Shown: positions 1 to 1,474 of the stretch, one piece after another | Layout: every line of letters starts with the position of its first letter | Numbering within the stretch: position 1 is the stretch's first letter | Assembly: GCA_050124795.1 (NCBI GenBank) | Contig: JASFEO010000024.1 | Span: forward strand, 1-11,434 | Direction: 5' to 3' | Length of the DNA stretch: 11,434 nucleotides | From: Candidatus Pacearchaeota archaeon | Lineage (GTDB): Archaea > Nanobdellota > Nanobdellia > Pacearchaeales > GW2011-AR1 | Made by a program: the position numbers and the translations under genes | The notes under the pieces: generated by a model | Database searches by the model: none | What the model was told of the DNA's origin: nothing | Seen by the model: the letters and a program-made list of their open reading frames with translations, nothing else

Positions 1-9
1 CGTCAGGAG

Positions 10-130
10 ACATAACAGGAATTTAACGAGAAATGCCTCAGCTCGGCATTTCTCCAAATTTGATTTTCCAGCTCTGTTCCGCTTCGCTTCACGAGGGAAA
101 ATCAAACTTCGTTAAATTCCGATGTTATGT
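10..130 (+). repeat. attC-like structured repeat, copy 1
   Basis: ACATAACA-GGAATTTAACGA (10-29) pairs with TCGTTAAATTCC-[GA bulge]-TGTTATGT (109-130). Ends ACATAAC and GTTATGT resemble attC R''/R'. Inner hairpins are 28-37/45-54 (10 bp) and 59-69/96-106 (11 bp), with GCTTCGC at 81-87. Confidence 0.75.
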
Positions 131-134
131 GCAA

Positions 135-161
135 TTTTGCCTTCGGCATCGTTGCACTAAA
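135..161 (+). repeat. Pre-attC module, copy A
   Basis: TTTTGCCTTCGGCATCGTTGCACTAAA is a near-direct repeat of 1306-1331. CGTTGCACTAAA is identical and the TGCC-TTC-GGCA hairpin covaries with TCCC-TTC-GGGA. Confidence 0.7.
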
Positions 162-186
162 TTTTAGGTCTTCCTGTTGGTCAGAC

Positions 187-295
187 GAATATAACAGCGA
201 TTAAGAGATTCCGAAGTCTTGCAGACTTCTCCATCCAAATTCGGTTTTGTGGGTTGCCTCAAAACCGAACTTCTCTTAATCGCGATGTTATATTC
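187..295 (+). repeat. attC-like structured repeat, copy 2
   Basis: GAATATAACA-GCGATTAAGAGA (187-208) pairs with TCTCTTAATCGC-[GA bulge]-TGTTATATTC (272-295). Inner hairpins are 213-219/223-229 and 240-249/260-269. Same architecture as copy 1 with compensatory substitutions. Confidence 0.75.
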
Positions 296-297
296 AA

Positions 298-333
298 TCG
301 TCGTGTAGATTTATTAAAAGGGGGCTGGCAAAG
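298..333 (+). repeat. Left arm of bipartite inverted repeat flanking the 283-aa ORF
   Basis: TCGTCGTGT (298-306), a 13-nt spacer, then GGGGGCTGGCAAAG (320-333). Both boxes are exact reverse complements of 1290-1298 and 1262-1275. Confidence 0.85.
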
Positions 334-336
334 AAA

Positions 337-1188
337 TTAATAGAAATCGGATAATCCTCTCAATCCAATCATTCTACCCATACCAAAATCACCGAATGAT
401 TGTCTATCTCTATGTCCAAAGGCTCCAAACTCAACAGGAATTCCTTGACTTTTTGCATAATCAAAAATTTCATCTCTTGGAAGTCTTCCCATAAATTCAG
501 GTTTTCCATTTTCAAAATCCCTTCTCATTCCTTCCACATTCAAATCCTCATGGATATACAGAATACTCTTTGGCTTAGCTTCATTTACAAAATCAAGTAA
601 TACTTTATGTAATTGTTCATCCCTTTCGCCAAAATATAAAGTATGAAGTCCTGTTTCTTCTGCTCCAAAAATTACATTTCTTGGATTTTGGACTTTTTCT
701 CTATCGGCGAGATACGCTTCAATAGTATCATAACCTAAATTTCTCGCAACACCTAAATCTCTTTTCATTTGGACTTGGATTGCATCAAGAGCTTTTTGTT
801 CTTTATCTTCTTTTGTTCCTTTATCAAATTTGATCATAGTATCTTCATTAGCAACCAAGTCAATTCCCAATTTATGTGATGTTGCAGAAATATATCTTGC
901 TCCTACTCGCTGTTCTAAATAAGGTATTGCTCCCCAAATATGTGGAGCTGCACCAGAAACAATAACTAAAGCTCCATCCCCATATTGAGATACGTGAGAT
1001 TCAACACATTCCTTTATTTCATCCCAACTAGTAGTATCTCTTGATATTGCTTCTGCTTTAGTATCTGTTTGGAGCCTTTGATAAACTGAGTTTACTCTAT
1101 CATCTGATAAATTAAATAGAGGATTATCTGAATTAGAAAAACCTCTTTCTTGCAATTCTCTTTCAAGTTTACCAATCTGTTTTTCCAT
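337..1188 (-). CDS. Hypothetical protein (283 aa), putative cassette cargo between attC-like copies 2 and 3
   Basis: Long ORF with soluble alpha/beta-like composition and a TATA-like TTTAAATA (1220-1213) upstream. No family recognised. Confidence 0.85.
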   Translation of the reverse strand: MEKQIGKLERELQERGFSNSDNPLFNLSDDRVNSVYQRLQTDTKAEAISRDTTSWDEIKECVESHVSQYGDGALVIVSGAAPHIWGAIPYLEQRVGARYISATSHKLGIDLVANEDTMIKFDKGTKEDKEQKALDAIQVQMKRDLGVARNLGYDTIEAYLADREKVQNPRNVIFGAEETGLHTLYFGERDEQLHKVLLDFVNEAKPKSILYIHEDLNVEGMRRDFENGKPEFMGRLPRDEIFDYAKSQGIPVEFGAFGHRDRQSFGDFGMGRMIGLRGLSDFY

Positions 1189-1212
1189 ATTAATATTAAT
1201 GATAATAACTAG

Positions 1213-1228
1213 TATTTAAATCTTTCTA
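1213..1228 (-). promoter_or_regulatory. Putative archaeal BRE/TATA promoter of the 283-aa ORF
   Basis: The minus strand reads purine-rich AGAAAGA then TTTAAATA, 25-32 nt before the ATG at 1188. Confidence 0.5.
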
Positions 1229-1261
1229 TTCTGTTACTACTTATATGTGACTAAATATACA

Positions 1262-1298
1262 CTTTGCCAGCCCCCAGAAAAAACAATAGACACGACGA
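1262..1298 (-). repeat. Right arm of bipartite inverted repeat flanking the 283-aa ORF
   Basis: CTTTGCCAGCCCCC (1262-1275), a 14-nt spacer, then ACACGACGA (1290-1298). Confidence 0.85.
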
Positions 1299-1300
1299 CT

Positions 1301-1349
1301 TTGAGTTTTCCCTTCGGGACGTTGCACTAAAACTCAATCCCTAACGGGA
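1301..1349 (+). repeat. Pre-attC module, copy B
   Basis: A TTGAGTTT/AAACTCAA stem (1301-1308/1330-1337) encloses TCCC-TTC-GGGA and CGTTGCACT, followed by a TCCC-TAAC-GGGA hairpin (1338-1349). Matches 135-161. Confidence 0.7.
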
Positions 1350-1474
1350 GAATATAACAGGAATTTAACGATTCCAGAGCCTTGCAGGCTCTTCCATCCA
1401 AATTTGATTTTCCAGCTCTGTTCCGCTTCGCTCTACGAGGGAAAATCAAACTTCGTTAAATTCCGATGTTAAAT
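1350..1474 (+). repeat. attC-like structured repeat, copy 3 (last of the array)
   Basis: GAATATAACAGGAATTTAACGA...TCGTTAAATTCC-GA-TGTTAAAT. The R' end GTTAAAT fits GTTRRRY exactly. 1397-1471 matches 53-127 at 73/75 nt, and the first inner hairpin AGAGCCT-TGC-AGGCTCT resembles copy 2. Confidence 0.75.

Follow-up and report, generated by a model that had tools for sequence, protein, structure and literature searches.

In classical integrons, small and mostly single-gene cassettes are arrayed between imperfect palindromes that fold and have conserved ends (TAAC...GTTA), the array is flanked by a divergent gene for a tyrosine recombinase, and the crossover falls into the 3′ box of the recombination site (attC), which is completed by the first bases of its own cassette. 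The system described here shares these properties, with a crossover that is placed by sequence comparison. The cassettes of classical integrons are promoterless, co-oriented and served by a common promoter. Their attC sites undergo recombination in the form of folded single strands (accessible part of PMC2727003), and arrays with classical structure have also been reported from archaea (Ghaly et al. 2022, accessible part of PMC9668308). Here, we analyzed a stretch of 11,434 nucleotides (nt) from a Pacearchaeota-like genome of the DPANN archaea (1.06 Mb, 31% G+C, 38 contigs). This stretch, referred to as the window, represents the entire contig C24 and starts within an attC-like cassette array, one cassette of which (cassette B) carries a gene for a protein of 283 amino acids that is enclosed by inverted boxes of its own.

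Gene modules bounded by dif sites are delimited by copies of one short conserved Xer site. On Acinetobacter plasmids, these modules resemble the system reported here in keeping accessory genes in head-to-tail modules between Xer-type sites and in being shuffled between replicons (accessible parts of PMC6449649 and PMC13141974). The large branched attC sites known as Vibrio cholerae repeats are also similar, being long, branched in their interior and alike within one genome, but according to the accessible part of PMC2727003 their pairing extends no further than the R box and just a few bases are carried over into the next cassette; that part of the paper describes no pairing that spans the cargo. 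The term "inverted repeat" is absent from the main text of Ghaly et al. 2022 (PMC9668308).

The system in the window works like an integron but fails the classical tests with respect to the integrase domain, the position of extra bases in the site and the promoterless, co-oriented cassettes. We consider it fairly probable that it represents an integron-like array in which the palindrome of each site extends past the crossover and the arms around the cargo pair in single-stranded DNA. Private arms around cassette cargo were not found described in the literature searched, and the feature is a well-preserved instance of an apparently undescribed variant of integron-like cassette systems.

Inverted boxes around the cargo genes

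The gene of cassette B is encoded on the minus strand (337-1188) and is bracketed by two pairs of inverted boxes. The inner box consists of 14 nt at 320-333 and 1262-1275 (pair I13) with 100% complementarity, and the outer box of 9 nt at 298-306 (TCGTCGTGT) and 1290-1298, whose match is exact, as read directly from the sequence and confirmed by script. The spacers between the boxes, 13 nt at 307-319 and 14 nt at 1276-1289, are non-complementary and unrelated to each other, and only 3 nt separate the inner box from the stop codon of the gene. An earlier note on this DNA had pointed out this arrangement, which was borne out by our complementarity checks, and reading the sequence also confirmed the layout it gave for the units of the array: the "empty" unit reads GTTATGTGCAA and continues directly into the module, while the filled unit reads GTTATATTCAA, followed by the inverted-repeat block. 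A 14-nt inverted repeat was reached in none of 300 mononucleotide shuffles of 294-1304, and one of 13 nt in two of them. Cofolding of the two arms yielded −31.1 kcal/mol with DNA parameters, as compared to −9.5 ± 2.0 kcal/mol (minimum −17.4) when the right arm was shuffled 200 times. Searching the 38 contigs of the genome, we found no second exact copy of the 14-mer and one further place for the 9-mer (C1:7819). The additional pairing of TCAA (294-297) with TTGA (1301-1304) across a bulge, which had also been proposed, has a more convincing alternative: TTGA starts a covarying stem of the downstream linker (1301-1309/1329-1337) and TCAA belongs to the conserved flank of the preceding site, so that the proposed extension competes with a better supported pairing.

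At least five cassettes of this genome share the same layout, with the outer box starting at the first base past the site flank, the inner box following 22-28 nt further inward, and the right-hand partners of both boxes located just before the linker. We retrieved 20 array regions from 14 related genomes and located the sites with a covariance model (R1, see below). We used 104 of the 108 site matches, dropping three opposite-strand echoes and one weak match in locus L010. The 77 cassette interiors obtained included 65 of 300-3300 nt from this and 12 related genomes, which were analyzed further, whereas three shorter and nine longer ones were excluded. Complementary blocks were sought between the first 60 and the last 220 nt of each interior, using 4000 cross-cassette pairs as a control. 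An exact block of at least 10 nt was present in 49 of the 65 cassettes vs. 5.5% of the control pairs, and one of at least 12 nt in 40 cassettes (control 1.4%); two colinear blocks with a combined length of at least 20 nt were found in 37 cassettes (control 0.95%), and the direct-repeat control never went above 11 nt. By manual count, the block began at the first base after the site (offset 0) in 38 of the 65 cassettes, with its partner ending at the start of the linker (CT...). This shows that private inverted arms are the rule for the cassettes of this archaeal family and no local oddity. The longest open reading frame (ORF) was on the top strand in 32 of these cassettes and on the other strand in 29, and a majority of minus-strand genes was seen only in the arrays of this genome.

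Frames similar to that of cassette B enclose different cargo in other genomes. When 400 other genomes of the family were searched for its left junction, composed of the R′ box, four free bases, CAA and the outer box, and no more than one mismatch was allowed, 20 of them contained it; a reversed pattern used as a control yielded four hits. The 13-base right junction was rejected as a lone marker (27 places vs. about 19 for the reversed control) and was used only if co-located with the left pattern; it was present on the same contig and strand, 790-2700 nt past the left junction, in at least eight genomes. In all eight loci retrieved from eight other genomes, the R′ flank and the outer boxes are the same, the spacers are similar and the right arm is followed by a linker. 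The blocks enclosed by them measure 795-2702 nt and contain one to four genes on either strand. None of the 19 ORFs of at least 90 amino acids in these loci was similar to the gene of the window, and only three pairs of them were mutually related. The inner box of each frame consists of a G-run, a CCGCC-like end and a variable core matching its own partner, and the eight other frames carry variants of the inner box of the window with matching partners. The inner box was exact over at least 13 nt in six of nine own pairs vs. one of 72 cross pairs. In the spacers, a AGAWTTATTAAAAG-like stretch on the left is conserved in nine frames, the A-rich right spacer (on the plus strand) has similar counterparts in other frames of the family, and the polarity was identical in 9 of 10 frames of this frame family, regardless of the cargo strand. 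The perfect boxes next to unrelated spacers, together with the compensatory changes in homologous frames, argue at the sequence level for a pairing that is maintained. A recurrence of the boxes around unrelated ORFs, for which the earlier note had suggested a search, was confirmed in part, applying to the outer box and the spacers in the eight related genomes, but not to the exact 14-mer, which is unique in this genome. In contrast to dif modules, each cassette has arms of its own that vary with compensation, and the conserved part is represented by the folded site and linker of about 170 nt; one short shared Xer site was not found as a boundary, given the low rates of cross-cassette blocks and of matching inner boxes in cross pairs stated above.

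Metagenome data showed a similar pattern. In contigs assembled from run X2, the box regions were about 10-20 times deeper than the gene interior, and in those of run X6 the depth of the right-box bin, but not that of the left-box bin, exceeded the depth in the covered gene parts about 10-fold. Five X2 contigs track the window up to position 324 and then enter another inner box. A second frame family comprised three cassettes from three genomes with a common left part of about 145 nt and a common right part of 46-150 nt, including both boxes, and with differing interiors. In locus L036 (6417-6550), a 15-bp inverted repeat encloses only about 65 nt. Another frame family, with a GCGCGC palindrome beside CCCACCC at its ends, was observed in loci L004 (135-2887 and 3046-5067), L006, L022, L030 and L031; its CCCACCC motif is on the same strand at both ends. 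The right spacers in L003, L002, L024 and L036 contain a conserved short hairpin followed by TTGATAC, which is also readable as a mini-frame of five codons (ATG...TGA).

Folded sites, proposed crossover and recombinases

The array in the window contains three site units of about 110-130 nt on the plus strand (8-134, 187-297 and 1350-1478), which share a three-way-junction fold. Among 16 sites of this genome, compensatory (double) changes occurred at six of the 14 predicted pairs; the basal 5-bp helix TAACA/TGTTA is nearly invariant, while the second helix compensates. The covariance model R1 built from these 16 sites scored site 1 at 132.9 bits (truncated upstream by the contig start), site 2 at 92.5 bits and site 3, the last site of the array in this contig, at 128.2 bits. 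Site 2 contains the R′ box GTTATAT (287-293) and the conserved flank TCAA. Altogether, R1 detected 24 sites in this genome, located on contigs C24, C31, C30, C5, C34, C29, C23 and C3. Of 150 further genomes of the family, 74 likewise contained sites that R1 detected. An nhmmer search with a profile of three site sequences found nothing in the loci of homologues of the cargo gene, and the covariance model then yielded one weak site in L010. Like attC, the sites are imperfect palindromes whose R and L boxes pair and whose end triplets are conserved, the structure being kept over the sequence.

Before every site stands a linker of about 50 nt, in which a closing stem is combined with a small hairpin and the conserved motif GTTGCACT. 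In an alignment of 17 linkers from 16 sources, the closing stem was paired in 99.3% of the cells and showed compensatory changes at five of nine pairs, a number that was not attained in any of 500 shuffles. In the linker of cassette B (1299-1349, plus strand), stem P1 (1301-1309/1329-1337) encloses the hairpin 1310-1318 and the GTTGCACT motif and is followed by a small hairpin, as assigned from alignment A3 and pair counts. C-TTCG-G loops close many of the linker hairpins on the plus strand, e.g., at 1311-1318. Near-identical site and linker sequences (corresponding to window positions 1-300 and 1300-1480) were observed in contigs of groundwater, salt-marsh and marine metagenomes (runs X2, X4 and X6), and the summed depth of window-like sites and linkers in these runs is high and far exceeds that of the cargo gene.

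To the right of GTTA, near-identical sites continue into different DNA, and the same DNA also follows different sites. For each cassette, the 5 nt preceding the 5′ box of its own site were checked for pairing with the 5 nt that follow GTTA, either at the 5′ end of this cassette or in its array neighbour. Pairing with the own 5′ end amounted to a mean of 3.9 of 5 positions vs. 2.4 of 5 with the neighbour (n = 38), and the own end was better in 26 cases, worse in seven and tied in five. Because the first bases of a cassette complement its own site, the crossover would be located at the 3′ box, as in integrons. Its probable position is after G287, at the GTT of the 3′ box, and cassette B of the window would accordingly span 288-1468.

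The circular junction of cassette B, folded in silico, forms one branched hairpin of 267 nt with −68.3 kcal/mol (−69.5 kcal/mol for the other strand), using exactly the pairs 1262-1275/320-333, 1290-1298/298-306 and 1350-1357/288-295. In the last of these, GAATATAA, the 5′ extension of site 3, pairs at eight of eight positions with 288-295 and extends the R helix by 8 bp. Together with the array neighbour, the same 5′ part folds at only −36.7 kcal/mol. Since the 5′ end of the cassette completes its own site, the arms are most simply explained as continuing the palindrome of that site past the crossover, and they most likely represent distal helices of a palindrome that is branched, about 265 nt long and split by the crossover. 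Among the options offered by the earlier note, a single-stranded pairing that loops out the gene is therefore the most plausible one, whereas its second layer of recombination sites becomes superfluous.

We propose that each cassette ends in a folded attC-like site with a structured linker before it and would recombine at the GTT of the 3′ box. The palindrome of the site would continue outward by two helices, represented by the outer and the inner box, with an internal loop between them. With the crossover inside this palindrome, one half of the helices would come to lie at the 5′ end of the cassette and the other half just before its own linker, and the gene and its promoter would therefore appear enclosed by private inverted repeats. 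In single-stranded DNA of the array, the arms would zip, extruding the cargo as a loop and bringing the preceding site beside the linker and site of the cassette, while in the excised circle the branched hairpin that they close around the crossover would be continuous and about 265 nt long. By analogy with attC sites, we infer that pairing in single-stranded DNA may be the working state in vivo and that it may help a Xer-type recombinase to fold or synapse the sites.

Some observations weigh against this interpretation. No block of at least 10 nt was found in 16 of the 65 cassettes, and none of at least 8 nt in seven of them. Because the sampled genomes are relatives and the set of cassettes was defined by a model derived from the sites of this genome, the figures describe this family and do not represent independent trials. 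The arms contain four mismatches in 1353 stem pairs, two of each kind, which are too few to tell the folding strand. Homologous end-modules occur with different linkers, which is unexpected for a strict unit of cargo and own site without extra recombination. Neither a circle junction nor an excision scar of cassette B was present in the assembled contigs of runs X1, X2, X4 and X6, from which rare forms are dropped. Finally, the promoters and terminators of the cargo genes are located in or beside the arms, leaving room for a transcriptional role.

The genome contains two genes for tyrosine recombinases (C5:24013-24837 and C3:922-1704), each of which adjoins sites and is divergent from their top strand. 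Together with the attC-like sites, these genes bear out the view of the earlier note that the locus is an integron-like cassette array. The recombinase from contig C5 (274 amino acids) passed the archaeal XerA model NF040815 with 234.5 vs. a cut-off of 220, but failed the integron-integrase model TIGR02249, which it matched in two stretches with 179.8 bits (cut-off 265). Its residues 179-191 stand at positions 179-248 of the IntI profile, i.e., the IntI-specific domain is missing. The enzyme from contig C3 (260 amino acids) was matched to Pfam family PF00589 only. Directly upstream of its gene, at 106-851 of locus L038, we observed a tandem duplication of about 373 nt with site-like elements.

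Compared to classical integrons, the recombinase tested is thus a short Xer-like enzyme lacking the IntI-specific insert. A further difference concerns the asymmetric loop of the sites (1 nt vs. 3 nt), whose extra bases are on the 3′ arm of the top strand, adjoining the GTT of the proposed crossover, whereas classical sites carry their extra-helical bases on the opposite R″-L″ arm (accessible part of PMC2727003). The cassettes of this family are split almost evenly between the strands and appear to carry their own promoters, the palindrome runs 36-100 nt past the crossover with the cargo between private arms, and a structured linker precedes each site. Processing stems of the bulge-helix-bulge type known from archaeal rRNA were set aside on geometry alone, as the internal loops measure 13-45 nt instead of 3-nt bulges.

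The empty unit and alternative explanations

The earlier note had seen in the locus a possible snapshot of an empty cassette being loaded with a gene. In the empty unit (about 128-286), the flank of site 1 is joined to a linker (135-186, plus strand) with a hairpin, the conserved GTTGCACT motif and a second small hairpin, but without the 5′ strand of closing stem P1, as evident from a comparison with 17 linkers and with locus L026. Unlike most cassettes, its 5′ flank matches its own site at three of five positions and the neighbouring site at all five. Because of the missing stem strand and the mismatch to its own site, the unit looks like a deletion derivative rather than an acceptor awaiting a gene, and the snapshot view was not supported. 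In a broader form, the hairpin frame of site, linker and two closing helices may still serve as a chassis that accepts new genes between the inner arms by a second activity. The unrelated cargo held by one frame family in nine genomes fits such a process, as do the inner boxes travelling with the cargo while the outer box and the spacers are common, the near-empty frame in L036 and the three cassettes with common end-modules and different interiors. We nevertheless regard it as unlikely, because the empty unit of the window looks truncated rather than pristine, the inner boxes show no conserved cleavage motif beyond the G-run and the CCGCC-like end, and no extra recombinase was identified in the inspected arrays except for one cassette with an rve-type transposase. 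Moreover, site families common to unrelated cargo are also normal in classical chromosomal integrons, which do without a loading step. If loading were true, gene capture would be the work of the private arms, and the nine cargos and the near-empty frames would represent a direct footprint of cassette making.

The arms might also allow a recombinase or template switching to flip the gene block, which could act as a switch or generate variation. The block is indeed flipped in locus L011, whose cargo protein is 81% identical: its left flank agrees with that of the window as far as the outer box, after which the right spacer, inner box, promoter and gene of the window follow in reverse complement, as would result from an exchange within the outer boxes. 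The unbiased cargo strand is also consistent with flipping. In L010 (83% identity), the orientation of the window and the 3′ arm are kept, and the 5′ arm is lost. The earlier note had considered reads in which 334-1261 is inverted or deleted, and this is reflected only by the evolutionary inversion in L011: neither a strand-changing joint nor a deletion of 334-1261 was present in the assembled contigs of the same four runs, with the same loss of rare forms. A 1150-nt contig of X1, the run from which the window probably originates, matches window positions 233-1382 exactly, and one X4 contig joins 324 to 1279 with undetermined letters in between. Since the promoter is inside the arms and travels with the gene, flipping would leave expression unswitched, and we regard inversion as a side effect of the arms. 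The spacer polarity, constant in 9 of 10 frames whatever the cargo strand, and the arms of 9-14 bp, which differ between cassettes and hence are no invertase sites, make a functional switch very improbable. As an element of RNA, on the other hand, the arms could act when read-through transcripts fold, their pairing yielding stems for processing or insulation and leaving terminator and promoter in the loops. T-rich tracts occur on the gene strand in both spacers, and the C-TTCG-G loops that often close the plus-strand linker hairpins are of a type known for its stability in RNA. With its promoter inside the inner arm, the gene would be transcribed into an mRNA without the 5′ arm, and the polarity of the arms is fixed while the cargo strand varies; moreover, a scan of the whole window matched no Rfam family at E-values up to 1. 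This explanation is therefore quite improbable. Ends of an insertion sequence (IS) or a miniature inverted-repeat transposable element (MITE), or a mere chance repeat, are hardly credible. Terminal inverted repeats around a single gene do resemble such elements, but the ORF contains no transposase domain, no direct repeat flanks the block, and the arms vary between cassettes yet always abut site and linker; the shuffles reported above speak against chance. The exact box pair is unique in the genome, which the earlier note had named as a point against its proposal together with a match to IS or MITE ends. The objection does not apply in spirit, as the pair belongs to a conserved frame family and no IS or MITE was recognized.

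Cargo gene, surroundings and meaning of the array

The cargo gene of cassette B codes for an orphan α/β protein from a family of 12 members, and its closest relatives are from Candidatus Pacearchaeota. The protein had no match in Pfam or PADLOC, only one chance-level match far below the cut-off in NCBIfam and only chance-level sequence matches to eL6 in the PDB. Its AlphaFold2 model reached a predicted local distance difference test score (pLDDT) of 81, but structural matches to the PDB were unconvincing, with a best Foldseek E-value of 2.4e-3 at a template modelling (TM) score of 0.21 and a best VIA-align Z of 5.4. Another ORF of 283 amino acids in the C5 array (L001 8973-9824, C5 26972-27823) was rejected as a paralogue, as it represents an unrelated rve-type integrase/transposase. 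A box resembling an archaeal transcription factor B recognition element (BRE) and TATA box is located at 1211-1226 on the minus strand, about 24 nt upstream of the ATG and within the inner arm, and is kept in L010 and L011; judged by its sequence, it is a putative promoter of the gene. The left spacer is T-rich on the minus strand just past the gene, from which we infer that it may serve as the terminator. A second perfect 14-nt inverted repeat (417-430/1067-1080) lies wholly within the ORF, covering codons for QRLQT and FGAFG. We considered it as a third helix and rejected it: 12 and 13 of the 14 positions are kept in close homologues, and distant ones show no compensation. This coding repeat may be due to chance or be lineage-specific.

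The array ends at 1478 and is directly followed, in the region 1483-2849, by an ORF of 80 amino acids and a gene for a class I tRNA synthetase of the Trp/Tyr type. Because its end is directly beside core genes, the contig appears to hold the distal end of the array. ARAGORN detected no tRNA in the window. Contig C31 (1-131, locus L004) and the window (1-134) open with the same site (99% identity over 130 nt) and part right after GTTA. As shown by the common start and the subsequent divergence, the assembly breaks at a fork of the array, which could correspond to two arrays or to variants in the population.

Integrons are the textbook example of gene capture, whose recombination site is commonly regarded as ending with the crossover box. 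In the system described here, this site appears as part of a larger, split palindrome and is associated with a short Xer-like recombinase. It represents a widespread archaeal relative of integrons, whose cargo genes, pointing either way and equipped with putative promoters of their own, would each be enclosed by a private hairpin of DNA. Frames with unrelated cargo provide material for testing models of cassette origin, and they offer a practical signature for such cassettes in genomes of DPANN and possibly of the candidate phyla radiation (CPR), which may escape standard integron finders. If active in single-stranded DNA, the arms would provide a simple way to bring the two sites of a cassette close to each other at any cargo length and may stabilize the site in the excised circle, which would widen the repertoire of structure-specific recombination.

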